A stretch of 64,000 bases of DNA from Malacoraja senta (Eukaryota), in assembly GCA_038087875.1 (NCBI GenBank), contig CM075988.1:24120001-24184000 (forward strand). Direction: 5' to 3'. Below, in pieces: positions 1 to 43,200 of this stretch. The stretch's first letter is position 1; each line of letters starts with the position of its first letter. Below the pieces are notes generated by a model, which was not told the origin of the DNA, did not search any database, and saw only the letters and a list, made by a program, of their open reading frames with translations. Made by a program: the position numbers and the translations under genes.

Positions 1-275
1 AGAAAGGAACTGCAGATGGACACAAAATGGGAGACCCTTCTTCAGACTGAAATCTCCTCAAGGAACTGCCGATGCTGGTTCACACCAAAGATAGACACAA
101 AATGCTGGAGTAACTCAGCGGGACAGGCAGCGTCTCTGGAGAGAAGGAATGGGAGACCCTTCTTCAGACATCTCCAGAGATGCTGCTTGCCCCGCTGAGT
201 TACTCCAGCACGTTGTGTCATTTGTGAAACCTGCATCTGCAGTTCCTTGTATCACCATGATATAGCGTTTAAGAA

Positions 276-441
276 AGAACTGCAGATGCTGGAAAAATCA
301 AAGGTAGGCAAAAATGCTGGAGAAACTCAGCGGGTGAGGCAGCATCTATGGAGCGAAGGGTCTCGACCCGAAACGTCACCTATTCCTTCGCTCCATAGAT
401 GCTGCTTCACCCGCTTAGTTTCTCCAGCATTTTTGTCTGCC
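276..441. repeat. Fold-back (self-inverted) Penelope 3'-repeat
   Basis: Arms at about 305-359 and 386-441 are reverse complements; the loop is the partial motif GGGTCTCGACCCGAAACGTC. Confidence 0.8.
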
Positions 442-935
442 ATGAAATAGCAGTCGCCAGTGAAAGTGGTTCGACCCCTGCACAGCAAAGCTGTATTTCT
501 AGTGAGTGCGATGAGAGAGTTTTGGTCAATTAACCTGATTGAGTTTGGTTAGTAAGGTTACCGTTTATCGTGCAATGACTTTAGTGGATACTTTCTAATG
601 GAACTACAAAACTTTAGCTGCTCACAGGCTGTGCTGGATGGTTACAGCGTCCATAGCACTTGAGTATAATCAAATGGATTGGTGCCTCTGTAAAGCCTCC
701 ATTAACAGTGCCCAGTGTGTCTCCTTTAAACTATGTCTAATGTGATTTAAAAAAATAATTGAAAAAGCACAACTCCATTAAGCATGGCTCAGTAGTGTGG
801 GATCCAGCAGAGCTAACTGATGCATCAACACGAGCTGGAGTTGTAATGTCCCATTGCCTTCAGCAACATGTTAACACCACAGTGTGACACGCTGTGTAAC
901 GCAGCCACTTCTCTGCTAGACTTTTGCACTAGCTG

Positions 936-4042: not shown

Positions 4043-5198
4043 ACTCTGTGGCTTTGTTAAGCCAATACCCCCCCAACTCTAACTGGAAGAGACAATATTG
4101 ATGGACTTCAACTTATATGGTAACACCAGCTGGCAAGCGTTGACCGTAAGGAATGCATTATCCACCTGGCTTTGGTGGACAGGAGACTTCAGTAACAGGA
4201 TCATACGCACATGAACTGTGCTGGCCGAGCGAATGAAATGGTTTCCTCGGTAAGAGACTGAATAATATGAAGTATTTTTTATCAGTCACCCCCCGCAGTT
4301 TAACGTGTGGTATAAAGTTTTCAGTAATATTCGACACCAGCTACCCTAATAGAAAATATTAGATACAGCTGCCATTTTATTACCAGCATCTTGGAGTATA
4401 AGCAGCTGAGGAATGCAGCACATGTGTATCCAGTCTCTTGTTAAAAGGCAGGGAAATTGTCCAAACTTCAGAGCCAAAAATGGAGTTGGGGCCAGGCAAC
4501 GGGGCTGGCTGGGGCTGGGGCTGCAGAATCAGCCTGCACTCTAGTTCACATCATGGATGGTACAGGTGGAATGGGAGCTGAGACCAGCCAGCCTGGTTGA
4601 CCGCAGTTCCGACTGGGCTTTGCCTTGACCTGATTGAACATCAGAGAAACATGGAAAATAGGAGCAGGAATCGGCCATTAAGCCAGTTCTAACCCTCAAT
4701 ATGATAAGTTCTTGTTATAGGAGCAGAATTAGGCCACTCGGCCCATCAAGTCTGCTCTGCCTTCAATCATGGCTGATGTATCTTTCCCTCTTAACCCCAG
4801 TCTCCTGCCTTCTCTCCATAACCCCTGATACCCGTATTAATCAAGAATCTGTCAATCTCCGCCTTAAAAATATCCATTGACTTGGCCTCCACAGCCGTCT
4901 GTGGCAATGAGTTCCACAGATTCACCACCCTCTGACTAAAAAAATTCCTCGTCATCTCCTTTCTAAAGTTACGTCCTTTTATTCTGAGGCTGTGCCCTCT
5001 TGTCCTGGAGTCTCCTGCTAGTGGAAACATCCTCTCCTCATTGGCTAGGCTTGAAATATTACATTCAGTTCCTTCAACAAAAATATTGGTACATTTTGTG
5101 AATGGCTGGGGTCCACACACGGACCTCTGTATATTTCATCCCCAGTCAAGTCCTGCCGAGCCAAAGAAGATCAGTTTATTCCTAATCTTAGTGCTCGA

Positions 5199-5614
5199 GG
5201 CCCTGTCCCACTTATGTGTCCTTGGCACGCAAATTACGCGACCTCGTGGTCGCGTTGAGGCGCACGGGCATCGTGTGGCCGAGCGGGGCCGGTCCCACTG
5301 AGAAGCGCGGAGGGGTATGTAGTTGTGCGCGACATCGCGCGGGGCTCCGAAATCTTTGTAGTGAACTAAATCTTCGCGCGCAGTCTGCAAAGAAGGGTCT
5401 TGACCCGAAACGTCACCCATTGCTTCTCTCCAGAGATGCTGCCGGTCCCGCTGAGTTACTCCAGCTTTGTGTCCATCTTCAAATGACGTCACGCGCTCCA
5501 GACGGCTGTGCGTACGCATGTAATCGCGCCCGACCTTCGCGGGACCGTCGCGGCTCAATGCAACCACGAGGTCGCGTAATTTGCATGCCAAGGACACGTA
5601 AGTGGGACAGGCCC
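5199..5614. mobile_element. Harbinger-type MITE with about 60-bp imperfect TIRs, interrupted by a Penelope repeat (about 5383-5480)
   Basis: Left GGCCCTGTCCCACTTATGTGTCCTTGGCACGCAAATTACGCGACCTCGTGG; the right end is its reverse complement. No clear TSD. Confidence 0.75.
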
Positions 5615-5859
5615 TCCAGTAGGCCAGGCAGCATCTGTCGAGGAAGGTAGGCAAATGATCTTTCGATTCGGGACCCTTCTTTGGACTGATCAATCCAAAG
5701 AATGATCCCGACCCGAAACGTTGCCAGTCCATCTCCTCTCACAGATGCCGACTGGCTGACTGAGCAGTTTGTCAGTAGCTCAGGAGCCCAACATCTGCAG
5801 TCCCCTTGCATCTCCCACTCCTAATCTTTATCTTCTGCCTGTCAGCCAGTCCATGCACA

Positions 5860-7535: not shown

Positions 7536-8389
7536 AGAAGGCAAATATTGCACCGTGTGTATCCGTTTTCACGAATTTGTGGTTCTGCTTTAAATTGGAC
7601 GATCTTTGGCTCTCGTTTTGAAGGGAACAGCTCTGTGTGAAGTTTGGCAACCAGAGCCCTGGCATTTCCAGGGAATGATCGAGGCAGGGGGAGGGAGTTT
7701 GAACGGGGAGACAGATACTGCCAAAGCACCTTCTGTCAAGGACTCTGCGATGACCATGAATCAGTCCAAGTCCAAAGTACAAAGCTGTGGACATTTCATT
7801 CCACTTGTACACAAAGCGGATTTGGAAAACAGACAACCAAACGCGGGACTCTGAAGGCCTCTGTCGCTTGGAATGTTAATGGCAGTCCACCCCCAGTTAT
7901 TGCTGCTGTTGCCAGCAGAACCTTCTTGTTATGTGTGATGTTAACTAATAATATCATGTAACACATTCCTTTCATGTTGATAAGTTAAATGGTTGAGAAC
8001 AATGTTGCAAACCACTCTCATTGAAACAGATGCTTCCCAGGGTTTGTCGAAAGAAACACACGCACTTTACAGAAATATTGACGCACAAGTCTCCCCTATT
8101 CTCTTCTCTCTTTCTCCCGTTCTATCCCCAAGAAAAATAAGACCTTCATTGTTCTGTTTTGGGACATTTGAATCGTGAACTGCAGGTGCTGGAATCTTGA
8201 GCAAAAAGCAAAGTACTGGAGGAACTCAGCGGGTCAGGCAGCATCTGTGGAGGGAATGGACAGATCAGGTTTGAGGTCCCTCCAGCACTTTGACTTTTTG
8301 CTTTCGTGATGATGGTGGGGAGATAACGGTGTAGGAAGGAACTGCAGATGCTGATTTAAACTGAAGATAGACACAAAGAGCTGGAGTAA

Positions 8390-11596: not shown

Positions 11597-12102
11597 GTCA
11601 AGTCAAGTCAAGAGAGTTGTCATGTGTCCCAGATAGGACAATGAAATTCTTGCTTGCTACAGCACAACAGAACATTGTAGGCATAAATACAGAACAGATC
11701 AGTGTGTCTATATACCATAGACCATATATATATATACATAAATGAACAGATAAAGTGCAATAGAGGTAGACATAAATGCTGGAGAAACTCAGCGGAGGGT
11801 GAGGCAGCATCTATGGAGCGAAGGAAATAGGCAACGTTTCGACCCGAAACGTTGCCTATTTCCTTCGCTCCATAGAAGCTGCCTCACCCGCTGAGTTTCT
11901 CCAGCATTTTTGTGTCTACCTTCGATTTTCCAGCATCTGCAGTTCCTTCTTAAACAAAATAGATAAAGTGCAATAGGCTGTTTTAGTTCAGAGTTTGTTT
12001 GATGTCGTGTTTAATAGCCTGATGGCCGTGTGGAAGAATCTCTTCCTGAACCTGGATGTACCAGATTTCAGGCTCCTGTACCTTCTACCCGATGGCAATG
12101 GA
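11597..12102 (-). mobile_element. Rex1/Babar-type LINE 3' end (second copy, interrupted)
   Basis: PLPSGRRYRSLKSGTSRFR; 3' UTR similar to 10370-10538; (CTTGA)n tail. Confidence 0.75.
11764..11960. mobile_element. Fold-back Penelope 3'-repeat inserted in a Rex1-type LINE tail
   Basis: Near-perfect palindrome with arms of about 75 bp centred on CGTTTCG-ACC-CGAAACG. Flanked by the 16-bp direct repeat AGATAAAGTGCAATAG (11748-11763, 11961-11976). Confidence 0.85.
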
Positions 12103-13047: not shown

Positions 13048-14032
13048 CTAAAAGATTCAGGGATTAACGGCTTTGTTTTGCAAACGTGGATTTTGAGATT
13101 GTTGGTCTCTGATGTGTTTGTGAGGAATGCAAACAGGCTGTCAGTAACTGCCTGGCCCAACTCAGGCACCAGTTACTGGAGCAAGAGGGCACAGATGGGC
13201 ACAAGGCATCGCTGCACATGCAAATGTGTAGGAAGGAACTGTGGATGCTGCTTTAAACTGAAGATAGACACAAAAAGCTGGAATAACTCAGCGAGACAGG
13301 CAGCATCTGTGGAGAGAAGGAATGAGAGACCCTTCTTCAGTCTGAAACATCACCTATTCCTTTCCCCCCAGAGATGCTGCCAGAGTCTCTTGCCCAGAGC
13401 TGGGGAATCGAGAATCAGGGGACATGTCCTAGGTTTAATGAGAGTTGGGAAAGATTTAATGGAATGGAATGCTATTTATTGTCATTCAAACCTAGTTTTG
13501 AACGAAATATCATTTACTACAGTTTTTTACATTACAAAAAAACCCAAGACCCACACTTAACACAGTTTACATAAACATCCATCACAGTGAGTCTCCAACA
13601 CCTCCTCACTGTGATGGAGGGCAAAGTCTTATCTCTTCCCTTTGTTCTTCTCCCGCGGTCCAGCAGTCCAACTGCAGCGTCGAGGTGAACTGGGGCTCCG
13701 ATGTTAAAGCCCCCGGCGGGCGATGGTAAGTCCTGTGTCCATTTAGCCACGCCGGGTGATGTTAGGCCCCGGCTCCATGTCCTTTAAACCCCGCGGTTCA
13801 AGCAGTCCAACCCGCGGTCCAGCAGTCCAACTGCAGTGTCTAGGCGAACTGGGGCTCCGATGTTAGAGCCCCCGGCGGGCGACGGTAAGTCCCGTGGCCG
13901 CTAACCCGCGCCGGGCCATGTTAGGCCTCGCTCCGTGTCCTTTAAACCCCGCGCGTCCAGCGGGAGCAGTTGTCGTTGCGGGAGCTCTGAAAGCCGTCTC
14001 CCACCAGGGACCTGGAGCTCCCGATGTTCCTG

Positions 14033-14232
14033 NNNNNNNNNNNNNNNNNNNNNNNNNNNNNNNNNNNNNNNNNNNNNNNNNNNNNNNNNNNNNNNNNNNN
14101 NNNNNNNNNNNNNNNNNNNNNNNNNNNNNNNNNNNNNNNNNNNNNNNNNNNNNNNNNNNNNNNNNNNNNNNNNNNNNNNNNNNNNNNNNNNNNNNNNNNN
14201 NNNNNNNNNNNNNNNNNNNNNNNNNNNNNNNN
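14033..14232. other. Assembly gap (200 N)
   Basis: Run of 200 Ns; a round size typical of a scaffolding gap of unknown length. Confidence 1.
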
Positions 14233-18981: not shown

Positions 18982-21442
18982 TTAGTCGTTGAGTGACTTG
19001 CTCCCATGGTCACTGAATGGTGGCCTTATTCTGCTGCTGTGTCTCATGGTCTTATAACTGGAGGATGGAGTGGACCCACTCACATACTTCCCCTTCAAGA
19101 AACTCCTGCGCCAGGAATCTGTGGAGGTCTGTGTGGCTCCCACGTTGGTTTTGAGTTCTGATGCGCCAGTTGAGCTCAGGGCAGTTTAGTTTAGTTTCCA
19201 GCACATTAACACCATCCTACACACACTCGGGACAATTTTTACATTTACCAAGACAATTAACCTGCAAACCTGCACGTCTTTGGGAGTGTTGGAGGAATCC
19301 GAAGATTGGGGAGGAAACCCACGCAGGTCGGGATCGAACCCGAATTTAAGAATAAGGAGTAAGCCATTTAGAACGGAGACGAGGAAACACTTTTTCTCAC
19401 AGAGTGTGGTGAGTCTGTGGAATTCTCTGCCTCAGAGGGCGGTGGAGGCGGGTTCTCTGGATGCTTTCAAGAGAGAGCTAGATAGGGCTCTTAAAAATAG
19501 CGGAGTCAGGGGATATGGGGAGAAGGCAGGAACGGGGTACTGATTGGGGATGATCAGCCATGATCGCATTGAATGGCGGTGCTGGCTCGTAGGGCCAAAT
19601 GGCCTACTCCTGCACCTATTGTCTATTGAACCCGGGTCTCCGCGGCTGTAAGGCAACAACTCTACCGCTGCGCCACCATGGCTGCACTCGTAGAAGTCAT
19701 CCTCGATCGCAAAGGTGGTGATGGTGCCGGTAATCAACGTAGGACATTAAGGATTCTCAATATTTGCAAATTCAATTTCCGTTGAATGACAGGGCCACCT
19801 GAAGGATAATTGTACAGGCTGGTGAAATGATAGTTGTCCAGTACAGTTTGGCGATTATCGTGCTGCTACCGGCAGGCTTCCATCACCTTCTCCTCCTTCA
19901 AATATGAAGACATATCATCGCTGCTTCGTTTGACTTCAGCAGCACCCATTTGTAAACAGTTTCCCAAACGGATTAGCTGCAAGCATTGAGTGTTCACCAG
20001 GCGTAACAATTATCAGCATTCACCAGGAAGAGTCCCAACCTGAAGCATCACCCATCCTTTTTCTCCACAGATGCTGCCTGACCGGCTGAGTTACTCCAGC
20101 ACTTTGTGTCCATCTTTGGTATAGACCAACATCTGCAGTTCCTTTCTGTACACCAGGTCTGTCTGTTTCAGTCCAGGTGTGAAGAAGAGTCTTGACCCTA
20201 GACATCACCTATCCATGTCCTCCAGAGATGCTGCCTGACCCGCTGAGTTACTCCAGCACTTTGTGACTTTCGTAAACCAGCGTCTGTAGTTCTTGGTTTA
20301 TGTGTGTGTGTGTGTCCTTCCTAAATTATTGCAATATTGGGAGACATGGTGTTGGAAGAACCACTGCCTTTTTTGGCAAGGGCCAGGAATCAAATGTTCT
20401 GCATTTCCCTCCCCAAACATTTAAGCCTTATATTTATTATTCCGCAAGTTACTGAATCACACACAGGTCACCACCTCAGCTAATTACTGGAGCAAGCTCC
20501 TAATGGCATTATTTCCACATCTCATCATGACTTCAAGCTTACTAAAGTAATTATATTCAGCGATATTGAGAAGCTGGAGAGAGCATGGATCAATAGATCC
20601 CCTTGTGGCATCATGCTCATTCATTTGCACGTATGTGCGTGCATGCACACACGTGCTCTGTGCGAGTTCAACTCTGACACACAAACGATTTAGTAATAAA
20701 TCGCAGTGTTTATTGTAAATTTAAATTAGTTTAGTTTCGAGATACAGTGCAGAAACGGGCCCTCTGGCCCACCGAGTCCGCTTCGACCAGCGATCCCCGC
20801 ACAACAAGATTATCTGACACGCACTCGGGCCAATTTACAACTTGCCAAGCCAATTAGCCGACAAACCTGCTCGTCTTTGTAGCAACTCTACCGCTGTGCC
20901 AACATAACAGTGGATAAAGGAAGATCAAAATGGCAGAAAACACATTTCCATTGAACCTGCGATAAAGGAAATGTATCTCAGCTCTCACAAGAGAGTTATG
21001 AATCTGTGGAATGCTCTGCCTCAGAAGACAGTGGAGGCCAACTCTCTGGATGCTTTCAAGAGAGAGTTAGATAGGGCTCTTAAAGATAGCAGAGTCAGGG
21101 GATATGGTGAGAAGGCAGGAACGGGGTACAGATTGTGGATGATCAGCCATGATCACAATGAATGGCGGTGCTGGCTCGAAGGGCCCAATGGCCTACTCCT
21201 GCACCTATTGTCTATTGTCTCTCAGTGAAGAGTTAGAATCCAGAATCAAGCAACTGGGTTGGAGTGGGATTCGAGTCACAGGCAGGCCCAAGTAGGCAAA
21301 AACGAATTGACAGATGTTTAAAGGAAATGTGAAGGGAAGCTTTTAGTTTTTACACACAGAGGGAGGTGGGTGCCCAGTACACACTGCCAATGGTGCAGAT
21401 TGAGGCAGATATGTTAGTGGTGTTTAAGTGGATTTTTAGTTA

Positions 21443-21834
21443 AGCCCCTGTCCCACTTAGGAGACCTAAACAGCAACCTCTGGTGACCTTGCCCGCCACC
21501 CAAAAAAAAAATCAAGGTGGAGGTGACCTGCAACCTCCTACCACCTCCCAGGCATTTGTTGAAAACCTTCCTCGACTATGTAGAAAACCGGCTTCGACTA
21601 GACCTGCGACTAAAAAATTATCGATTTTTAAAACTGCAACATATTTTTGGTCGAGGCCGGTTTTAATCACGATGAAAAAATAGCAGCAACCTAGATGAAG
21701 CCTCGACCACCGCGGAAACCACTTTCGACCATTAGGGAGAGTGACCAAAACCTCCGGTGACCTCATGAAAACCTTGGGTGGCAGGCAAGGTCACCAGAGG
21801 TTGCTGTTTAGGTCTCCTAAGTGGGACACGGGCT
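21443..21834. mobile_element. Harbinger-type MITE with about 59-bp TIRs
   Basis: TTA-AGCCCCTGTCCCACTTAGGAGACCTAAACAGCAACCTCTGGTGACCTTGCC...GTGGGACACGGGCT-TTA; splits an older CR1 tail. Confidence 0.88.
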
Positions 21835-22680
21835 TTAGGCACATGGATCTGCATGGAATGGAGGAACATGGATCACGAGCAGTCCGGGAGGTCAGTTTAA
21901 CTTGGCATCATGCTGGACACAGATATTGTGGGGCCTAATGGGTCATTTCCTGTGAAGATAGACACAAAGTGCTGGAGTAACTCAGCGGGACAGGCAGCAT
22001 CTCTGGAGAGAAGGAATGGGTGACGTTTAGGGTGGAGACCCTCGTGCTGTATAGCTCTATGTTCTAGAATGTATAAGAAAGAACTGCAGATGCTGGTTAA
22101 AATCGAAGGTAGACACAAAATGCTGGAGTAACTGAAGGGTCTCGACCCGAAACGCCGCCCATTCCTTCTCTCCAGAGATGCTGCCTGTCCCGCTGAGTTA
22201 CGCCAGCATTTTGCGTAAACCTAGATCTATGTTCTGTTTTTTTCTTCATCAAGGGACACCTGTTAATCAGTTGGGCGTCACAACAAAGAGACTCATTGCC
22301 ACCTTTATTGATTCAGGCGGTATAAAAAAAACCAAATATAATTCTCAAATTACCAGGGAGAGATGAATCATCAACTGACCAGTCTGGTTGTCTAACAAGA
22401 GAATCACTGTAAAAACACTCCTATTTACAAGCTGACGCAAGATAAGTTTATTAGTTTAGAGATACAGCACAGAAACGGGCCCTTCGGCCCACCGAGTCTG
22501 CACTGACCAGCGATCCCCGCACACTAATACTATCCTACACACACTGGGGACAATTTACAATTTTACCAAAGCCAATTAGCCTACCTTTGGAGTGTGGGAG
22601 GAAACCAGAGCAACCGGAGAAAACTCATTAAAGGCCAACTTCCCTCCTGGGATATATAAAGTTCTACTTTAGTCTTCAGT

Positions 22681-23007: not shown

Positions 23008-23438
23008 CAATAGACAATAGGTGCAGGAGTAGGCCATTTGGCCCTTTGAGCCAGCACCGCCATTCAATGTGATCATGGCTGATCATCCCCAATCAGTACC
23101 CTGTTCCTGCCTTCTCCCCATATCCCCTGACTCCGCTATTTTTAAGAGCCCTATCGAGCTCTCTCTTGAAAGTATCCAGAGAACCTGCCTCCACCGCCCT
23201 CTGAGGCAGAGAATTCCACAGACTCACCACTCTCTGTGAGAAAAAGTGTTTCCTCGTCTCCGTTCTAGGGCATCAGAGGGCATCTGTTCTAGGGCATCTG
23301 AAAAATAGCGGAGTCAGGGGATATGGGGAGAAGGCAGGAACGGGGTACTGATTGGGGATGATCAGCCTTGATCACATTGAAAAGCGGTGCTGGCTCGAAG
23401 GGCCAAATGGCCTACTCCTGCACCTATTGTCTATTGTC
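23008..23438. mobile_element. Two CR1 3' ends in inverted orientation (23008-23267 minus; 23301-23438 plus)
   Basis: About 135-bp reverse-complementary arms, each ending in the ATTGTCT tail. Confidence 0.85.
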
Positions 23439-23613
23439 AGTCAGTCATAGTCATACATTTATGCCTGTCCCGCTGAGTTACTCCAGCATTTTGTGTTTAT
23501 CTTCGATTTAAACCAGCACCTGCAGTTCCTTCCCTGCACGTAAATACAGTTCTATGGGGTAGTGGTTCTACCGTAAGGTGGAGTTTGTCCAATGGACACC
23601 GGCCGGCACTTAC

Positions 23614-23964
23614 CGAAGACAGTGAGGTTGACCTGGCTCTCTCTGTTTCCGGTTGGGAAGGTCGCAAACTCACAGATGTACACTCCCTCGTCCATGAGCT
23701 CCAGCCTGGACATCTCAATGGTGGCGTCGCTGAGAGAGGGGTTCTTGAAGGAGACTCTGTGCTTGTACGGCGGCAGGACGGACTCGCCCATCGTGGGGTG
23801 GTAGATGGCGATGTTCTGCTTCGATCCGTTGGTCGCCTTCTGCCATGTCACCTGCGTGATTTTGATGGTGGGGTCGTTGTTGACGAAGGTGCATCGCAAC
23901 ACCACGCTGGTGCCGATAAACGCCGACAAGCTCTCGTCCACTGTCACGGTCTGCGCCTGGAAAA
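23614..23964 (-). CDS. nectin1: nectin-1 (PVRL1) internal exon encoding the N-terminal Ig V-set domain (probable exon 2)
   Basis: Translation FQAQTVTVDESLSAFIGTSVVLRCTF...KITQVTWQKATNGSKQNIAIY...DEGVYICEFATFPTGNRESQVNLTVF matches the nectin-1 V domain as I recall it (ITQVTWQK, EFATFPTGNRESQ). Donor G|GTAAGT at 23614/23613. Acceptor TTGTAG|TT at 23965/23964, with a CTAAC branch-point-like motif at 23984-23988. Length 351 bp, phase 1/1 as expected for an Ig exon. Confidence 0.93.
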
Positions 23965-24006
23965 CTACAACAACACACCCCTCGTTAGAAGTCAGTCGGA
24001 ATAATC

Positions 24007-24513
24007 GACAATAGACAATAGGTGCAGGAGTAGGCCATTCGGCCCTTCGACCCAGCACCGACATTCAATGTGATCATGGCTGATCATCCCCAATCAGTAC
24101 CCCGTTCCTGCCTTCTCCCCATATCCCCTGACTCTGCTATCTTTAAGAGCCCTATGTAGCTCTCTCTTGAAAGCATCCAGAGAACCGGCCTCCACCGCCC
24201 TCTCCCCATATCTCCTGACTCCGCTATTTTTCAGAGCCCTATCAAGCTCTCTCTTGAAAGCATCCAGTGAATTGGCCTCCACTGCCTCCGAGGCAGAGAA
24301 TTCCACAGATTCACAACCCTCTGTGTGAAAAAGTTTTTCCTCATCTCCGTTCTATGGCTTACCCCTTATTCTTAAACTGTGACCCCTGGTTCTGGACTCC
24401 CCCAAGATCAGGGACATGTTTCCTGCCTCTAGCCTGTCCAAACCCTTAATAATCTTATATGTTACAATAAGATCTCCTCTCATCCTCCTAAATTCCAGAG
24501 TATACAAGCCCAG
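24007..24513 (-). mobile_element. CR1 3' fragment with an internal tandem duplication; its tail ends about 40 bp before the nectin1 acceptor
   Basis: The AVEAGSLDAFKRELDRALK unit is present twice (ORF 24094-24306). Confidence 0.85.
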
Positions 24514-24690: not shown

Positions 24691-24874
24691 GACTATGACT
24701 GGTGCCCTTAACGCACACACAAAGCATTGGTCCCAAAGGACTTGGCAGCCTCGGAAGGGGCCAGAGCGTGTCGCTACATTGGTTCCTTGATGGCAAGTAC
24801 AGGCACAGACAATGCCTATCAACGCAGCATCTGTACAAGCAGAGGGCTTCAACCCAAGAACAGCTGTGTTACTG

Positions 24875-25100
24875 AAGATGGACACAAAACGCTGGAGTAA
24901 CTCGGCGGGTCGGGCGGTATCTCTGGAGAATATGGACGGGCGACGTTTCAGGTCGGGAGCCTTCTTCAGTCTGAATGAAGGTCCTGACCTGAAACGTCAC
25001 CCATCCATTTTCTCCGGAGATGCCGCCTTACCCGCTGTGATACTCCAGCATTTTGTGTCTATCTTCGATAGAAACCAGCATTCGCAGTTCCTTCCTACAC
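24875..25100. repeat. Inverted pair of Penelope 3'-repeats, each with a diverged hammerhead motif
   Basis: GGGCGACGTTTCAGGTCGGGAGCCTTCTTCAGT directly followed by CTGAATGAAGGTCCTGACCTGAAACGTCACCC. Confidence 0.75.
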
Positions 25101-25118
25101 CACAGGTTTATAGGTTAA

Positions 25119-25449
25119 TAGCCCTGTCCCACGGTACGAGTTCATTCCAAGAGCTCTCCCGAGTTAAAAAAAAATCAAACTCATGGTAAGCGCGTAGAAT
25201 GAACGTAGCGGGTACGTCGGAGCTCGGGGACGTCTCTTAGCGGCTCGTAACGCTAACGGCAGGTACTCGGGAAGACTCGCTAACGGCAGGTAAGCACGGG
25301 AAGACTCGTGAAGATTTTTCAACATGTTGAAAAATGTCCACGAGAGCCCCGAGTACCGACGAGTGGCCATTACCGTAAATCTCCGAGTTCGAACCAGGGC
25401 AAACTCGGGAGAACTCTTGGAATGAACTCGTACCGTGGGACATGGGTTT
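25119..25449. mobile_element. Harbinger-type MITE with about 45-bp TIRs
   Basis: TAA-TAGCCCTGTCCCACGGTACGAGTTCATTCCAAGAG...CTCTTGGAATGAACTCGTACCGTGGGACATGGGTTT-TAA; interrupts a CR1 fragment. Confidence 0.85.
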
Positions 25450-27959
25450 TAAGGTGAAGGTGAAAAGATTTAACAGGAGTCTGATGGACAGCTTTTTCAC
25501 ACAAAGGGTGGTGGGTGTATTGAACGAGCTGCCAGAGGAGGTAGTCGAGGCTGGGACTATCGCAACGGTTAAGAACCAGTTAAACAGGTACATGGATAGG
25601 AGAGGTTTGGAGGGATATGGGTCAAACACAGGCAGTGTAGATGGGACATGTTGGCCGGTGTGGGCAAGTTGGGCCTGTTTCCACGCTGTGCGACTGACTC
25701 TATGACCATAGCGGTATTACCATCTGTACTGCACTGATGTCACAGGAAGCTGAAGACACTCAACGACAAAAGACTTCAATCTGATACCGTCGACTTTAAT
25801 TTGAGAGTACTGCTTTATTACATTAAGCGCTGAAGAATTAATAAACAATCTGCATTCATTAAGGAATTCCATAAGACATAAGACATAAGTTACATAAGAC
25901 ATGTGGTGAGAGGATACTTGTGAGGGGGAGGAGGAGGGGGAGGGGTGCAAGAGGCTGGCTGTAGAAAGGGCACCGTCTCGGAGAGTGAGAATAGCAACTA
26001 TTTATTTCGCAGCAAGGATCGTGTCAAGCCAAATTCTTCAAGTAACAATACAAGTGCTGGTTTACATAACGCACTGTGTTCAGTCCAGGGAACTAATTTC
26101 CATTCCTGTGGATCAGCACAAGTTTTGAGAGAACAACATAATTAATGACGAGAATGAGTTCCTGGAGCCATGTGTGCACGTTCCCACCGGCAAAGCCCAC
26201 TGCCCGGCCAGTCTTTCCTCCGTCACCCGCGGCTGTAGTCTTTCAGCTCAACGTTTCCAAATGCCCAATATTTATTCATGGAAAAATATATCATATGGAC
26301 TATTACATCTCAATGCCACGCTACCAATCAATGCAGCCCCCACAGACTCGCTGAACGCTGCCAAGTTTCACTGTTCCCATGGACGGGTAACTATTGATGC
26401 ACTGACCTACTGTAGATATGTACCCAGCGCAGGGAGCGCACAGCAGAGCCCAGCAACGCATTACGTTACAGTATACACTCACACACACACACTCACACAC
26501 ACACTCACACACACTCACTCACACACACACACAGCAGAGCTCAGCACTGCATTATTGTACAGTACGCACACACCCTCACAAACACACTCACAAACACTCA
26601 CACACACTCACAAACATTCAAACACACACTCAGAAACACACACAAACACTCACACACTGACACACAGCAGAGCTCAGCACTGCATTATGTTACAGCACAC
26701 ACACACACACACTCACTATTCACACTTGTGCTTTGTATTAGAGAAGTCACTGAAGAGCAAACAATTCTAGATATAAACATTTTGTGTACAGGTCATGTCG
26801 TTAGACCAGACTTGCCCTCGGAAATTCAACCTTTTTTTCTCAACTGTAACAAGCCCCTTGGGGCTCATCACATCAATGAGCCTTGAAGTGTAGGAACAAA
26901 ATACCCACATCAACATGTACACACACACACACAGGACAACGGTCATCTATTCGAGCAGCTCTGTGGTTTTCCAGTTAATTTCCGATTAGTTTTTTACCTC
27001 CCTAAGATTTACCAGAGAGCCTTACAGCATGGAAACAGGCCCTTCAAAAAGAAAAAAAACAATTCTTCAAGCCCCATATTGGTTGCACAGTGGCACAGCA
27101 GTAGAGCTATCACCTCAGCCCCAGATTCAATTGTGACTACATGTACTGTCGGAACAGAGTTTGCACGTTCTCGCCGTGACCTGCGTGGGTTTTCTCAGAG
27201 ATCTTCGGTTTCCTCCCACACTCCAAAGACGTGCAGGTCTGTAGGTTAATTGGCTTGGTGTAAATGTAAAATTGTCCCTAGTGTGTGTGTGTGCGTAGGA
27301 TAGTGTTAGTGTGCGGGGATCGCTGGTCGGCGCGGACTCGGTGGGCCGAAGGGCCTGTTTCCGCGCTGTATCTCTAAATCTCAATTGCATTCAACATCCC
27401 ACCTCATTAATACTGAACTTAATCCACGCAAGGCCTTAGCTCTCATTCCAACTCAGTTAAAAAAAACAACGGCTCCCAGCTCCATTTTGTCAAATTCGTC
27501 CCCATGTTCTGGGAACAGGAGTATTAAACACACTTGATTCTGCACAGTATGTGGTCCTTGCAGTAAATCGCTCAAATTAAACCGTAGATCTTCAGCTGTC
27601 ATGCACAGGTTATTTCAACATATCATAGCTAAACACCAAGGAGATTATCTGTGTGGAGCAGGTTGAAAAATACACACAGACAGAGCCCTACCTCCCTCCT
27701 CCCCATAAAATGTCCACAGCGCACTGGCGATAACACTGCTTATTCCAGTTCATGCTGTTTATGTGAAGCAGATAAGGACAGGAATCATTTTTGCCCTTGA
27801 AGGCAGAGGGCAATTTTTACTCATCAGCAGTTTCAGCAGAGCGATCCTGAAACTATTACACAGTCAGTGAAAAATAGTCTCTACTGAGAGGATGTTGCAC
27901 TCACATCTTCAAATATAGGTCTCCACAAGGAACGTTCAAAGCAGCAGTGTCTCGCAGAA

Positions 27960-34547: not shown

Positions 34548-35550
34548 TTCCAACAGGTCAGATGGCTGTTTTAGCATCCATTAGGACGGCAGCAGGGAGA
34601 GGATTCTCAAGAGCCCTTTGAGGTAAACAGTGCTGAGGGAGCATGTGGCGCTCCCAGCTGCTGATGCCTCCCACTCTCTGCACATTTGTCCAAGTTGGCT
34701 GCTTATGTCTCTGGCATAGTGCTGCTGTCAGCCTGTGCCGTAATCCTCGCCTGCAGACACTGTTCTCAGACACACCTCCGGTACCCAGGGAGTGCTCGCA
34801 ACAATACAGCAAGGCAGAAGAGAGAGGGCTCACACACACACAGTCACTAATAGCTATTGCAAGGAATCAAAAGGGCTGAACTGCCAATTAGCAGAAGCCA
34901 ACTGTCCTTCGAGCTCCCGGCCAATGAGTGACAACGTACGGACTACAGCCAAAGGTGCAACTGTGGACATGGAGCTCTGCACAAGGTGTGGAAAGGTGTG
35001 CTGATGAGAAATCTCAGTCAAACGCCAAGCTTTCAATAATATCTTCCCAAGACTCATCATTTGTTTAATTCAGTTTAGTGATACAGCGCGGAACCGACCC
35101 TTCGGCCCACCAAGTCCGTGCTGACCAGCGAACTCAGAGTACCACAACTATCGTGCACGTTGGGGCACATATAATTTTGCCAAAGCCAATTAACCTACAA
35201 ACCCGTACGTCTTTGGGGTGTGGGAGGACACCGGAGATCCTGGAGAAAATCCACAGGGAGAACGTGCAAACTCCGTACAGACAGCACTCGTCGTCAGGAT
35301 CGATCCGGCCTGTAACGTCGCCCATTCATGTCCTCCTAAGATGCTGCCTGATCCGCTGAATTACTCCCATTACTTTGGATCTTTTTTTGTTGTAAACCAG
35401 CAGTACCTTGTGTAAGTAAGTAAGTTTTATTTATATAGCACGTTTAAATCAACTTGCGTTGAAACCAAAGTGCTTTACATAAAAGAAATAATTAGGTTTC
35501 CGTACATCAGTACTTCAAGAACAATAGGTATGGATATCCTTTCACATACT

Positions 35551-35770
35551 GTGTAGGAAGGAACTGCAGATGCTGTTTAAAAACCGAAGAAAGATGCAAA
35601 AGCAGGAGTAACTCAGCGGGACAGCAGCATCTCTGGAGAGAAGGAATGGGTGACGTTTCAGGTCGAGACCCCTTCTTCAGACGTCTCGACACGAAACGCA
35701 CACGCCATTCCTTCTCTCCAGAAATGCGGCCTATCCCGCTGAGTTACTCCAGCTGTCTGTGTCTATCTTC
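35551..35770. repeat. Fold-back Penelope 3'-repeat
   Basis: Minus-strand copy with a near-intact motif (35652-35680) followed by an inverted partial copy. Confidence 0.75.
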
Positions 35771-36629
35771 TTTGATAGAGTGGTTTACCTTTCCAATGAA
35801 ATGACGGCATGATACCATTATTATTGCACGGCAATGTATTTTCACGGTGGGTGTAAACCACAAATTTGGAATATTACCAGCTGAGATCAAAGTGAAATGT
35901 GAAACCTGGCTAAGCTGTCAGACTGCGGAATTACAACTCATCCCAGCAGTTCATATTGAAACAGCTCGCACACAAGGATTTCCAGAGGGAGTATGTGTTT
36001 TTACAATCCAACTTATTTACTTTGCAAAAGAACCCTTTCATTTGGAAAACAACATTTTAAATAATCAGCAACAGAGGAGTTTTGGCAAGTTTCACCGATC
36101 AGAGAGATTATGGTTGCAATAGAACCAGATCACACTAAACACACCCTTTTAACAGATATGATGTATCACAGGATAATGGCTGTGGTTTTCAGTGGAACTG
36201 TAAAGGACATCCAGAATTAATCTGTGTAGGAGGGAACTGCAGATGTTGGTTACACCGAAAATAGACACAAAATGCTGGAGTTTAGTTTAGACATACAGCA
36301 CGGAAAAGCTGGGCCCTCGCCATGCCGACCAGCGATCCCCGCACATTAACACCATCCTACACCCACCAGGGACAATTTTTACATTTACCAAGCCAATTAA
36401 CCTACACAAACCTGCACGTCTTTGGAGTAACTCCGCGGAATCAGGCAGCGTCTCTGACAGACGAAATCTACAAGGCCTCGTCTAGGCGGAAACGGCTTTC
36501 TATTCTGCCGCAAGTATTCAGGACAAAGTGGATGTCAGAGCAAATTGACCCCATGAACGGTGAGCTGGGAGGGGCGGGAGACCTTCGTGGAAATGCAGAA
36601 CAGCAGCGCAAAGAAAACTAAACGTAAAC

Positions 36630-37769: not shown

Positions 37770-38142
37770 ATAGACAATAGACAATAGGTGCAGGAGTCGG
37801 CCATTTGGCCCTTCCAGCCAGCACCGCCATTCAATGTGATCATGGCTGATCATCTCCAATCAGTACCCCGTTCCTGCCTTCTCCCCATATCCCCTGACTC
37901 CGCTATTTTTAAAGAGCCCTATCCGGCTCTCTTGAGCTCTCCTATCCAGAGAACCTGCCTCCACCGCCCTCTGAGGCAGAGAATTCCACAGACTCACCAC
38001 TCTCTGTGAGAAAAAGTGTTTCCTCGTCTCCGTTCTAAATGGCTTACTCCTTATTCTTAAACTGTGTGTGGCCCCTGGTTCTGGACTCCCCCAACATCGG
38101 AAACATGTTTCCTGCCTCTAGTGTGTCCAAGCCCTTAACAAT
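37770..38142 (-). mobile_element. Young CR1 3' fragment, host of the Penelope insertion (resumes at 39424-39448)
   Basis: The consensus CCCTTAACAATCTTATATGTTTCAA is split by the insertion. Confidence 0.88.
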
Positions 38143-38157
38143 GTTTGTTTTGTTTTG

Positions 38158-39215
38158 GTGATTGTATTGGTGCCACATCCTGCACCCACACACAACTGAC
38201 TGACTTCATCCGCTTCACCACCAACTTCCATCCGGCACTCAAATACACCTGGACCATTTCCGACACTTCCCTACCATTCCTTGACCTCACTATCTCCATC
38301 GCAGGTGATAGACTTCTTACCGACATCCACTACAAACCTACCGACTCCCATGGCTATCTGGACTACACTTCTTCCCACCCTGCTTCCTGTAAGGACTCCA
38401 TCCCCCACTCCCAATTCCTCCGTCTACGCCGCATCTGCTCCCAGGATGAGGCGTTCCACACCAGGGCATCTGAAATGTCCTCATTCTTCAGGGAACGGGG
38501 GTTCCCCTCCTCCACCATAGATGAGGCTCGCACCAGGGTCTCTGCCATACCCCGCAACACTGCTCTCTCTCCCCATCCCCCCACTCACAACAAGGGCAGA
38601 GTCCCCCTAGTCCTCACCTTTCACCCCACCAGCCGTCACATACAACAAGTGATCCTCCGTCAGTTTCGCCACCTCCAACGTGACCCCACCACTCGCCACA
38701 TCTTCCCATCTCCCCCCATGTCTGCCTTCCGCAAAGACCACTCCCTCCGTAACTCCCTTGTCAATTCTTCCCTTCCCTCCCATACCACCCCCTCCCCGGG
38801 TACTTTCCCTTGCAACCGCAAGAGATGCAACACTTGTCCCTTCACCTCCCCCCTCTACTCCATTCAAGGACCTAAGCAGTCGTTCCAGGTGCGACAGAGG
38901 TTCACCTGCATCTCCTCCAACCTCATCTATTACATTCGCTGCTCTAGATGCCAGCTGATCTACATCGGTGAGACCAAGCGGAGGCTTGGCGATCGTTTCG
39001 CCGAACACCTCCGGTCGGTCCGCAATAACCAACCTGAACTCCCGGTGGCTCAGCACTTCAACTCCCCCTCCCATTCCGTATCTGACCTCTCTGTCCTGGG
39101 TCTCCTCCATGGCCACAGCGAGCAACACCGTAAATTGGAGGAAATGCACCTCATATTCCGCTTGGGCAGTCTACATCCTGGGGGCTTGAACATTGAATTC
39201 TCCCAATTCTGCTAG
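38158..39215 (+). CDS. Penelope-like element ORF fragment: RT C-terminus/thumb, Cys-rich linker, GIY-YIG endonuclease
   Basis: Uninterrupted frame of about 350 aa with DCIGA (remnant of YIDD-CIG), LPFLDL, YKPTDSHGYLDYTSSHP...SIPHSQFLRLRRICS, PCNRKRCNTC and NLIYYIRCSRCQLIYIGETKRRLGDRFAEH. The predicted start codon lies in junction sequence and is not real. Confidence 0.9.
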
Positions 39216-39332
39216 CCCTTGCTGTCCCCTCCCCTTCATCAGCCATCTGGTTGTCTCCTCCCATCCCCCAGCCCTCGGGCTCCTCCTCCGCCTTTTTCCT
39301 TTTTTCCTTTCTTCTCCCCACCCCCTATCAGT

Positions 39333-39360
39333 CTGAAGAAGGGTTTCGGCCCGAAACGTT
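39333..39360 (+). ncRNA. Minimal type-I hammerhead ribozyme motif in the Penelope 3' repeat
   Basis: CTGAAGA-A-GGGT(TTCG)GCCC-GAAA-C-GTT. Conserved CUGANGA and GAAA cores, 4-bp helix II with UUCG loop, loopless helix III (palindromic ACGT), NUH triplet GUU. Helix I is only about 2 bp. Confidence 0.65.
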
Positions 39361-41416
39361 ACCTATTTCCTTCGCTCCATAGATGCTGCTGCACCCGCTG
39401 AGTTTCTCCTGCATTTTTGTGTACCCTTAACAATCTTATATGTTTCAAACATATATGTATATATGACTTGTATGTAAACATATATGACTTGTATGTATAG
39501 AGACGAATGAACATCGTGGAATAAGTTAGAAAATACCCAGCAATTACCCCAATACATTAAGAAAGTTGGGAGACCATCACACCCATCGGCATTATTTAAT
39601 CGAGCTTCCTTCCCACATACAAACTTCACCTTCCGAAACAGAATTTGCAAATACTGCACCCATTAACTGAGCAGGTGAGCACCAGGAACATTAACTAGCA
39701 GCGTTGCGGTTAGAAATGATGACAAACATTGTTGAGTTTGAGAAGTAATTCACCATCAATAATTCACCATTCACCTCCTTCCACTCCTAACCAACACAGA
39801 ATTTGTTTTTTTAAATCTGTCAAGCTCTTGGCTCAGAGCCAGAAGGCAGAAGATTAAAAAAAAAGCAGCTCCATTAGTGCCAATAGGAATAACAAAGGAT
39901 GGAATTCAAAAACATCGCGCCCGACATGCAGGTGGGAAGATGGGACAGCAAGGCCGGGCCGGGCACATTCACCTGGGCAGTGGCGGCGCAGTGGTAGAAC
40001 TACAGCCGTACAGCGTCAGGGACTCGGCTTCCATGACCACTACGGGTGCTGTCTGTGCTGAGTTTATATGTTCTCCCCGTGACCGGTGTGGGCTGCCTCC
40101 GGGATCTCCGGTTTCCTCCCACACTCCAAAGGGGGGTGTGTGGTGTCTGTCTCTCTCTCTCTGTGTGTCTGTCTCTCTCTGTGTGTGTGTGTGTGTCTCT
40201 CTGTGTGTGTCTCTCTCTGTGTGTCTCTCTCTCTCTCTCTCTCTGTGTCCCTCTGTCCCTCTCTGTGTGTGTCTCTGTCCCTCTCTCTCTGTCCCTCTCT
40301 CTGTGTGTGTCTGTCCCTCTGTCTGTGTGTGTCTGTGTGTGTTTGTGTGTCTGTAGTCGGTGCGATTCCGCGCCATATCTCTAAACTAAACTAGATTTAC
40401 AATAGGGAACTGCGCTTTATTACTGTAAACTAAATAAAACTGTAAACTAAAGAGTGCATGATTGAAGCTGCCAACTCAGTGGCACACAACAGGGTTAATC
40501 CCATCTACAGACCACCCCTTCACTCTGCCCTGGAGAGGAGAGAGGCCTGGCTGTTATTTTGCTGACCTATTTCCCGCTGGTCCATCAGAATTGTGACAGC
40601 AGGGATAAAGCTGACACTTGGAGATTGCTTTTAGATTATTACTTGTCTGGTACGAAAAATGGTCACTTGGCATTCCGCCAGCTGCCAAATTCCACTTTAT
40701 TTCATCCCGACACCAAGCGTTTACTCACTCTAAGCTGCGCCGGGGCAGGGTCACCTTCACAAGGGCCCTTCCCGACTCCTGCAGTTTTCGACAACCAGCA
40801 GAGCAAGCATTCACAGCATGAAAAGTCGAAACGTCGCAGTTTGTCACGACAGACTCGGACTGAAACGTCGGCGATAACCGGCGCATTCTCAACAGTTTAC
40901 AGAACTTTCTAACTAAAGAACTTGACATTAATTTTAATCAAGCCATACCACGGGGACTGGTCAATGGATGTGGACGTTTCTCAGATGAGGCAGCGCAATA
41001 TTCAGTAATGGGAAGTGACTGGAAATCATTGCAATGGGTTTACACCATCATCGTGAGGGGGCAGTGTGAGGCTCGCAAATCAGAGTTATCTAATATGCTG
41101 TTCAAATTAAACTTCAACACTGATTAGAATGAGCACCTGCTGGTTGCCACAGCCACATGGAAAGGTTACTTATTCCCATCTCAAACGGCGCCTAAATCGC
41201 GCTGCCCTACTTTCCCCCCCACATTCAGAGCTCAGTCATGCAGCGGCCATTTGGCTCATTATCCCCTTGCCAACAGGAGTTCCTCATCAAAACCTCATAG
41301 CCTCCATTTTCGTGGACACTTGTGATGGCCCTGGCTTTAAAAGCTGAATCCAAATAGCCTCCTCAGCCATTTACCCCTTATCGAAACCCCACAGTATTTT
41401 ATTGAAACATTGGCTT

Positions 41417-41918: not shown

Positions 41919-43200
41919 ATTGGCCCATTCATAAGACACAAAGTGCTGGAGTAACTCAGTGGGTCAGGCAGCATCTCTGGAGAACATGGAGAGCTGATGT
42001 TTGAGGTCGGGACCCTTCTTCAAATTGAAGGGTCCTGACCCAAAACGTATCTATCCATGTTCTCCAGAGATGCTGACCTACCCGGATGAGTTACTCCAGC
42101 ACTTTGTCTTTTCTTTTGCAAACTGGCATCTGCAGTTCCTCCTTTCTCCATCAGTCTCACCATGATGGTGTCTATAGGAAGAAGGTTCTCGACCCGAAAC
42201 GTCGCCCATTCCTTCTCTCCAGAGGTGCTGCCTGTCCCACTGAGTTACTCCAGTTTTTTGTGCCTAACTTCAGTTTAGACCAGCACCTGCAGTTCCTTCC
42301 TGCACATGATGCTTTGAGGATGTCTGCTTCCAAGAGCTCCAAATGCAACTTTACTGAGCTTCTATTTATAAACTATGATAATTCCCGGCACATTTATTCC
42401 CACCTGCGCTGACAAGTTACCTTGCAAAGTTTCGGTCGAGACCAAGGTTGAAATTCCTGTTTTTCCAGATATATTTTTAAAAACTTGTTTTTTTTTGTGT
42501 GGGTTTCAAAAATTGCAACCGATTGCAAAATTAATGCCGACACAATCGTCAGCTCCACCCCACGCTGATGTTGACCCACGAGACAAGGACGCAGCCACCA
42601 ATGTTAGACTTGTGCGGGACCTTGCCGGGAATAGGCAACCCGCTGCCATTTTCTCCACCACCGCCCATCGGGAACTCAGAATGGCCCTGCCGACATGCCC
42701 GGTGCGAACTTGCCCAGGTCCCACCCGTCACTGACGTCCCGGCTGGAGCCCGGCGATGGGGCAAAAGTGTCTCGAGTCGTTCTCAGCAACTCCCGCCTGT
42801 GGACCCCGCACAAGATTAGTGTGTGGGAAGGAACTGCAGATGCTGGTTCAAACCGAAGATAGGCACAAAACGCTGGAGTAACTCAGCGGGACAGGCAGCA
42901 GCAACTCTGGAGAGATGGAATGGGTGACGTTTCAGGTCGAGACCCTTCCACAGTGAGAGTTAGAGAAGAGGGTCTAGAGATATGGAAGGGTAAGGTGTGA
43001 AAACAACGACGATAAGGAAATGTAGAATGGTTCATTGTTAGCGGAGGGTGTGACAAGGAGGCGTACAACCAGTAAATTAATCAGTGAAACTATGATTCTC
43101 GATTAGTACGGGTGTCAGAGGTTATGGGGAGAAGGCAGGAGAATGGGGCTAGGAGGGAGAGATAGATCAGCCACGATTGAATGGCGGAGCAGACTTGATG

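Follow-up and report, generated by a model that had tools for sequence, protein, structure and literature searches.

Head-to-head insertions of a Neptune-type Penelope-like retrotransposon in Malacoraja senta: arm, tail and junction counts point to a probable joining of two target-primed cDNAs

Introduction

In the twin priming of L1 elements both strands of the nicked target prime cDNA synthesis on the RNA, and the outcome is an inversion inside one target site duplication (TSD). The two cDNAs are joined by microhomology or by filler nucleotides, the two segments are non-overlapping, and the internal priming site is variable from one insertion to another.

The closest described products are the insertions of EN+ Penelope-like elements (PLEs), for which an inverted, 5'-truncated pLTR, a tail of 30-40 nt on one side and one TSD have been reported (Arkhipova 2013, PMC3846280; Craig 2021, bioRxiv 10.1101/2021.04.23.441226). 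Inverted copies are also described for Naiad elements, which are devoid of any hammerhead (bioRxiv 10.1101/2021.04.23.441226), and the origin of the tandem and inverted structures of PLEs is called unresolved in the review literature. For the anole element Poseidon_Ac it was shown by in vitro TPRT (Frangieh 2024, PMC11167929) that both strands of the target are cleaved and extended, and that the RT starts at two internal sites, separated by about 35 nt, which bound the tail. The start sites did not differ between the strands, a dimer is predicted, ribozyme cleavage is not needed and the RNA continues into the ORF (PMC11167929). A term search of the main text of that paper returned no discussion of inverted copies or TSDs. 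Minimal hammerheads of PLEs have been described by Cervera and De la Pena 2014 (PMC4209133), who also noted opposite-strand hammerhead pairs 100-700 bp apart, and in the same source a helix I of about 2 bp is described for D. virilis. A CX2-5CxxC linker upstream of the GIY-YIG domain is reported to be present in Neptune and Nematis elements and absent from Penelope and Poseidon.

Here we analyze such insertions starting from a stretch of 64,000 nucleotides, referred to as the window. A sequence-only reading of the window had proposed that Penelope repeats integrate as self-inverted fold-backs turning around at the ribozyme motif, and that the ribozyme hairpin or its cleavage end may set the point of strand switching or self-priming. 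The same reading noted that inverted terminal repeats are known for Penelope elements, and rightly so: the inverted truncated copy, the one-sided tail and the single TSD are published PLE hallmarks (PMC3846280; bioRxiv 10.1101/2021.04.23.441226) and the structure is not new. New are the counts that discriminate between mechanisms. With short, clearly TSD-flanked insertions in the tens of thousands, the genome allows arm lengths, tails and alleles to be counted, and the counts connect the in vitro result from 2024 (two starts, both strands) with the inverted pLTR. Searches of the accessible literature returned no paper in which the inversions of PLEs are attributed to double priming.

Results

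Element coordinates are given relative to +1, the C of the hammerhead CUGA box, so that the predicted cut comes after +28, the tail-less end is at approximately +93 and the tail ends at +128. A longer copy of the same family is present in the window (Table 1), with a reading frame at 38139-39215 and a hammerhead core starting at 39333, and it fixes the orientation and the clade of the element. The translation of 38139-39215 matches the Pfam GIY-YIG profile, as in an EN+ PLE, with an E value of 3.7e-4 and a score of 21.2 bits, slightly below the gathering cut-off of 22.6. Its CX4CxxC motif falls within the CX2-5CxxC linker upstream of GIY-YIG, and on this sequence criterion the linker marks the element as putatively of the Neptune/Nematis type rather than Penelope/Poseidon, the clade to which Poseidon_Ac belongs. 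The portions of the ORF that we observed are the thumb/EN end and the N-terminal start. Several partial tandem copies (L295-L298 and L300-L304) extend from the EN end across the hammerhead and +128 into an open frame. This identifies the repeat as the pLTR, with either end lying inside the element RNA. The base following +128 is an A in 84 of 100 flanks, as it is in the element, and the ends at approximately +93 and +128 delimit a one-ended tail within the 30-40 nt known from EN+ PLEs. Genome-wide there are 53,589 exact matches to a 29-nt core and 5,897 to a 39-nt tail end. Copy density on C12 (199 copies in 200 kb) is about 4 times that of the C1-C4 spread (47 copies in 200 kb). A near-identical block found on many small contigs (L295-L297 and L300-L304), which extends from 299 nt upstream of the hammerhead into the ORF N-terminus, may represent either a segmental duplication or an element that recently served as a source, and a 200-base assembly gap at 14033-14232 of the window adjoins a PLE copy.

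The hammerhead motif has the core boxes, a stem II with covariation (U-G and U-A alleles), a palindromic helix III stub and the UH triplet of a minimal type I hammerhead, and intact cores are found in window copies, for instance at 39333 and 22681. It shares the CUGA-GA and GAAA boxes, the extra base preceding stem II and the palindromic 15.2-16.2 positions without loop III with the minimal PLE hammerheads as presented in PMC4209133, and differs from them in that helix I of the putative hammerhead here is only about 2 bp. Rfam gave no hammerhead match at gathering score in the whole window, and no hammerhead family in 39250-39450 at E values up to 10.

The region 11764-11960 is one insertion of a Neptune-type Penelope-like retrotransposon flanked by a TSD (Table 1). 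The sequence-only reading had taken the 197-bp insert to have arrived in a single event, and the identical 16-bp repeats on its two sides bear this out. It had also called the insert a near-perfect palindrome centred inside the hammerhead. This is true for 158 bp (11764-11921), in which 1 substitution and two small indels separate the left arm, of 78 bp, from the right, but not for the remaining 39 nt, which consist of the 34-nt tail and 5 additional nt and are found in the right arm only. The symmetry centre does lie within stem II, but the insert is without the CUGAAGA box, the first catalytic box, and therefore holds no complete ribozyme. The predicted fold of the insert is one long single hairpin (z = -21.9 compared with 200 shuffles). 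The 3-nt loop at the junction belongs to the tailed arm, and the 27-nt junction has 38 exact copies genome-wide. The focal copy on its own fits either priming from both target strands or a snap-back of one cDNA (see Discussion), but the outer end of its second arm coincides with the priming site at +94.

Table 1 Features of the window with positions and strands; element coordinates are relative to +1 of the hammerhead.
Feature	Position	Strand	Remarks
Left TSD copy, 16 bp	11748..11763	+	19 bp with one mismatch when counted from 11745
Tail-less arm, antisense, element about +20..+94	11764..11841	-	Outer end is the major internal start site
Junction in hammerhead stem II	11836..11850	.	6-nt overlap of both arms and 3-nt loop
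Tailed arm, sense, element +11..+128	11836..11955	+	Stem II, GAAAC box, predicted cut triplet, 3' pLTR
PLE tail, about 34 nt, tailed arm only	11922..11955	+	
Right TSD copy	11961..11976	+	
Head-to-head pair, one tail, 12-bp TSD (1 mismatch)	255..451	.	Tailed arm to about +36, tail-less arm to about +6
Head-to-head pair, one tail, 14-bp TSD (1 mismatch)	22052..22235	.	Tailed arm to about +65
Older pair, centred on palindrome at 5' edge of hammerhead	24864..25100	.	TSD not found
Older pair, one tail, junction about -2/+11	35550..35771	.	TSD not found
Older pair, one tail, junction at 5' edge of hammerhead	41934..42144	.	TSD not found
Longer same-family copy	38139..39426	+	Thumb / CX4CxxC linker / GIY-YIG frame, pyrimidine-rich UTR, hammerhead core, tail-less end
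Exon, immunoglobulin V-set domain	23552-24064	-	Pfam E 2.6e-17

Eight further fold-backs had been claimed in the window, mostly turning in or next to the motif, and for these the outcome is mixed. Four of them (24875-25100, 35551-35770, 41934-42140 and 13225-13380) do turn at or next to the motif, though no TSD was found around them. The pairs at 276-441 and 22070-22215 have a TSD, but their tailed arms end downstream of the motif, in the latter case far downstream. At 61-247 there are two tails from different subfamilies and no TSD was found, so that this is probably a case of nested or adjacent copies rather than a fold-back, and at 8176-8300 a profile search gives no second arm of at least 40 nt. 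Altogether a TSD was scored in 3 of the 10 head-to-head pairs of the window (null below 1%).

For quantification of the pair structure we used a tailed sample, drawn from contig C1 as its first 100 copies with an exact tail, which is unbiased with respect to the junction. After leaving out eight complex copies (L136, L137, L141, L157, L171, L173, L177 and L209) and two segmental duplicates (L182 and L183), and counting L138, L180 and L200 as solos adjoining older copies, the sample contained 44 clean head-to-head pairs and 46 solos. Junctions were called by joint alignment of both arms. An unselected sample of 464 kb (the window, the C12 flanks and the C1-C4 spread) contained 302 copies.

It is clear from both samples that the pairs are single insertion events with a fixed polarity. 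One TSD brackets both arms in 39 of the 44 clean pairs, a check that the sequence-only reading had asked for, and its length is 10-18 bp, mostly 14-15 bp (random boundaries below 1%). In the 464 kb, adjacent copies are head-to-head in 66 cases and tail-to-tail in 7 (p = 4e-13), with ratios of 10:1 in the window, 52:6 in the C12 flanks and 4:0 in the C1-C4 spread. Exactly one tail is present in 34 of 40 scorable unselected pairs where 20 are expected (p = 8e-6; the count leaves out 26 pairs with an arm ending elsewhere), and the 6 exceptions to this one-tail rule are all without a TSD. The outer end of the inverted arm lies at +91..+102 in 34 of the 44 clean pairs, is shorter in 9 and is never at the tail end (0/44); one inverted arm called at +113 ends at +94 by eye. 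When 30 arms were sampled on the core alone, 22 ended at +89..+96 and 7 carried the tail, which makes the +89..+96 site the commonest 3' end in the family in this core-only sample, and five tail-less solos ending at this site have their own TSD of 10-17 bp.

Long head-to-head pairs, whose arms measure 200-760 nt and extend into the EN region (L122, L146, L155, L174, L184 and L246/L247), obey the same one-tail, one-TSD rule, and in L184 the inverted arm begins inside the ORF at approximately -287. A different arrangement was observed at L002:1010-1530 (G000:C17:2962650-2963273), where a 47-bp segment from the hammerhead region is repeated head to tail about 11-12 times inside one inverted, tailed insertion; the layout is retrozyme-like, and the repeated unit is without the first catalytic box.

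The inner ends of the arms are not spread uniformly along the element. Both lie within the hammerhead (-10..+31) in 29 of the 44 pairs, and at least one does so in 39, so the proposed clustering of the turns at the motif is real. The peak is at the 5' edge of the motif (-10..+9), with 29 tail-less and 14 tailed arms, and a second cluster lies in stem II, with 8 tail-less and 17 tailed arms. Among the solos, 24 of 46 end at the same 5' edge, so that stopping there characterizes the cDNAs in general and not only those in inversions. The suggestion that the cleavage end is the point of strand switching has to be rejected: none of the 88 inner arm ends is found at the predicted cut (+27..+31), most arms contain the catalytic core 5' of the predicted cut, and the one solo end of 46 that was called there comes from an over-extended alignment. 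The 170 unpaired copies of the unselected sample include 118 that extend to +9 or beyond it in the upstream direction, and 3 with an end at +27..+31.

There are 38 distinct junctions among the 44 pairs, and the check on recurrence thus indicates that the pairs are formed anew and do not descend from a replicating mini-element. Thirty-nine junctions are short; in 11 of these the arms overlap by at least 2 nt, 11 are blunt or have 1 nt, 6 have a filler of 2-4 nt and 11 a filler of 5-31 nt. Of the 11 long fillers (at least 5 nt), 8 match at least 6 nt of the nearby flank or of the element, as expected of end-joining. Where the arms overlap, the shared sequence falls on self-complementary words, located at -5..+4 and within stem II. 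The hairpin is not without a role: at some junctions it provides microhomology, through stem II or the TCAG-T-CTGA palindrome, and it also contributes to short inverted fillers.

Of the 38 genomic copies of the focal-type junction, 29 have a TSD and one pair of copies is a duplicate. In 26 copies the tailed arm carries the loop and in 9 the tail-less arm does, 3 copies being unclear; among the 26 are 6 whose second arm is shorter and variable, which a snap-back would also produce. Three alleles at +58/+59 occur among these copies (13, 11 and 6 copies), matched between the two arms. The variety in tail side and alleles suggests that this junction has arisen de novo repeatedly, with the microhomology acting as a hot spot.

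The relative reach of the two arms bears directly on the mechanism. In the 44 young pairs the tail-less arm extends further 5' in 21, the tailed arm in 6, and in 17 the two are within 4 nt of each other (21/27, p = 0.006); in the unselected sample the corresponding numbers are 16, 5 and 13 (16/21, p = 0.03). A snap-back copy cannot outreach the tailed strand that serves as its template, and the 21 longer tail-less arms are therefore not snap-backs, which removes the self-priming fold-back, also put forward in the sequence-only reading, as a general cause. The tailed arm ends already at +61..+86 in five pairs (L133, L149, L202, L178 and L123), where the stops are like those of classic twin priming.

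At subfamily alleles the arms of a pair agree in 154 of 174 site comparisons, compared with about 92 under permutation, and therefore they usually derive from one RNA or one source. In three pairs the arms differ at a two-base subfamily allele, where about 0.04 would be expected from mutation, and the arms of L130 match two established haplotypes. These discordant alleles hint at two RNAs in some events, although conversion or recurrent slippage could mimic them.

Discussion

We consider it probable that the pairs consist of two separately target-primed cDNAs, one for each nicked strand, which are joined head to head by host end-joining; this model is built on the final genomic products. Under this double priming the endonuclease would nick both target strands approximately 14-15 bp apart, and one RT would prime at +93 and another at +128, in most cases with a single RNA, or RNAs of one source, as template. 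The cDNA begun at +93 would usually extend as far as a hard stop at -4..+3, and that begun at +128 would end variably, from +86 upstream and often within the region already copied. The cDNA ends would then be joined by end-joining via the hammerhead palindromes or with templated filler, so that the ribozyme hairpins would provide microhomology to the join without triggering it. In favour of double priming, +93 is an independent end that is also used by TSD-flanked solos. The model further agrees with the in vitro activity of the anole Poseidon protein (PMC11167929), although that protein belongs to another clade and its start sites were the same for the two strands. Some observations speak against it: 9 of the 44 inverted arms end before +91, the complex copy L173, which was set aside, carries a tail on each arm and lacks a TSD, the loop of the focal-type junction prefers the tailed arm as it would in a snap-back, and the allele sharing is predicted by a snap-back as well.

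The pairs share with the described EN+ PLE insertions the head-to-head copy, the tail at one end, the TSD around the unit and the palindromes at the junction, and differ in that the unit here is mostly 130-230 bp and extremely abundant. Compared with L1 twin priming the second priming site is fixed, and most pairs duplicate 60-95 nt of the element, usually about 90 nt, where the L1 segments would be non-overlapping; something near to non-overlap is seen only in L123 and L178. The double-priming model also fits the inverted copies of the Naiads, which are described as ribozyme-less.

In the snap-back model, a tail-primed cDNA would stop at the hammerhead, fold on the palindrome of stem II or of the 5' edge, copy itself to +93 and then be cut or joined to the target. 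Such a route agrees with the 17 of 44 junctions that are symmetric within 4 nt, the 11 of 39 with overlaps of at least 2 nt, the loop on the tailed arm in most focal-type junctions, the alleles that are mostly common to both arms, and the short inverted fillers at L130 and L160, which resemble aborted snap-backs. It requires, however, that the tailed arm reaches at least as far 5' as the other, which fails in 21 of 44 pairs and in 9 of 38 focal-type junctions, and it leaves the fixed +93 end common to the solos, the long flank-copied fillers and the allele-discordant arms unexplained. As a general route it is already refuted, and we find it unlikely overall, with room remaining in part of the focal-junction class; our counts thus argue against the self-priming explanation of 2013 (Arkhipova, PMC3846280). 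About equally unlikely is a hairpin made before integration, in which an antisense or read-through RNA would self-prime a long hairpin that the endonuclease opens by staggered cuts at +93 and +128. Ideas of a hairpin that is subsequently resolved are found in PMC3846280 and bioRxiv 10.1101/2021.04.23.441226, and palindromes at the inverted junctions of rotifer elements were interpreted in this way. The head-to-head polarity, the single tail and a loop on either arm would all be accounted for; yet identical arms with a simple loop are predicted, and 11 of 39 junctions have fillers of at least 5 nt, some of which are copied from the target flanks (L149 and L202), indicating that the join was formed at the target. 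Furthermore, solos with a TSD end at the same two sites, and both sites are RT start sites in vitro according to PMC11167929.

That the pairs are instead two independent insertions, or products of later rearrangement or gene conversion, is very improbable given that one TSD surrounds both arms in 39 of 44, that head-to-head pairs so strongly exceed tail-to-tail pairs and that the one-tail rule holds; for the pairs with a TSD this origin is refuted. Young copies do land in older ones (L003, L007 and L180), two-tailed and no-tail pairs without a TSD exist, and gene conversion could produce the few discordant alleles, so that independent insertions probably apply to a minority such as 61-247 of the window. 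Least probable of all is a replicating, non-autonomous palindromic mini-element of SINE- or MITE-like nature with a few masters and fixed junctions. Although the focal 27-nt junction is present 38 times and a few other junction types recur, such an element is contradicted by the number of distinct junctions and by the identical junctions that have their tail on either side (26 versus 9) and carry three +58/+59 alleles. Nor do the pairs look like MITEs, for which a fixed junction, equal termini and a fixed short TSD would be characteristic: the termini are unequal and the TSD varies between 10 and 18 bp. For annotation this means that such palindromes belong under PLE insertions, not under MITEs or ribozyme-driven mini-elements.

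Returning to double priming, the hard stop of the cDNAs is most simply read as the 5' end of an RNA whose transcription would begin in the upstream pLTR, and, more weakly, the short copies would then be 'strong-stop'-like, primed in that upstream pLTR. The element sequence at -5..+2 bears what we take to be a resemblance to an initiator consensus. In its widest form the proposal is that a dimer primes both strands, using two fixed sites with a spacing of 35 nt, that the inverted pLTR and one-sided tail are the product of this double TPRT, sometimes on two RNAs, and that the copies of 95-130 bp are strong-stop cDNAs running off the transcript 5' end at the edge of the hammerhead; we put this forward tentatively, as a possibility somewhat short of an even chance. 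RNA reads from related organisms showed no pile-up of molecule starts or ends and mapped no transcript start, and no GT-AG skip was present among the joints listed. Opposite-strand joints at -5..+19 were present in three of the runs, and these may be genomic palindromes or the result of library template switching.

The hard stop coincides with an apparent 3' splice site, and a 3' splice site at the hammerhead has been reported for D. virilis. The UTR at 39215-39332 resembles a retained intron, with a donor-like GT at the stop, a pyrimidine tract and a CAG one base before the core, and the unrelated subfamily UTRs of L211, L219, L163 and L184 all retain the pyrimidine tract and the CAG. A spliced template was considered and rejected: searches of the genome with exon-junction patterns found no spliced copies, the general pattern giving 36 matches, of which 10 were inspected and proved to be another subfamily's own UTR in 9 cases and a TSD-flanked solo in 1, and a subfamily-specific pattern giving 4 matches only, explained by their flanks. 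Two further signals were discarded. An apparent AAAAT target preference is a query artefact, the unselected flanks showing the first A only, and an extra 5' G resembling a cap signature (22/42) is confounded by the stem II microhomology, so that no claim is made from it.

Among other features of the window, the V-set exon listed in Table 1 is presumably nectin-like, and the repeats probably lie in introns of its gene. The 3' end of a different retroelement, which we assume to be CR1/L2-like, forms a head-to-head inverted duplication at 23008-23436, with 147 bp at 95% and a repeated filler at the junction. Three MITE-like elements (5194-5619, 21442-21835 and 25115-25452) have related terminal inverted repeats of 51-75 bp at 89-97%, and the one at 5194-5619 has a PLE copy inside it.
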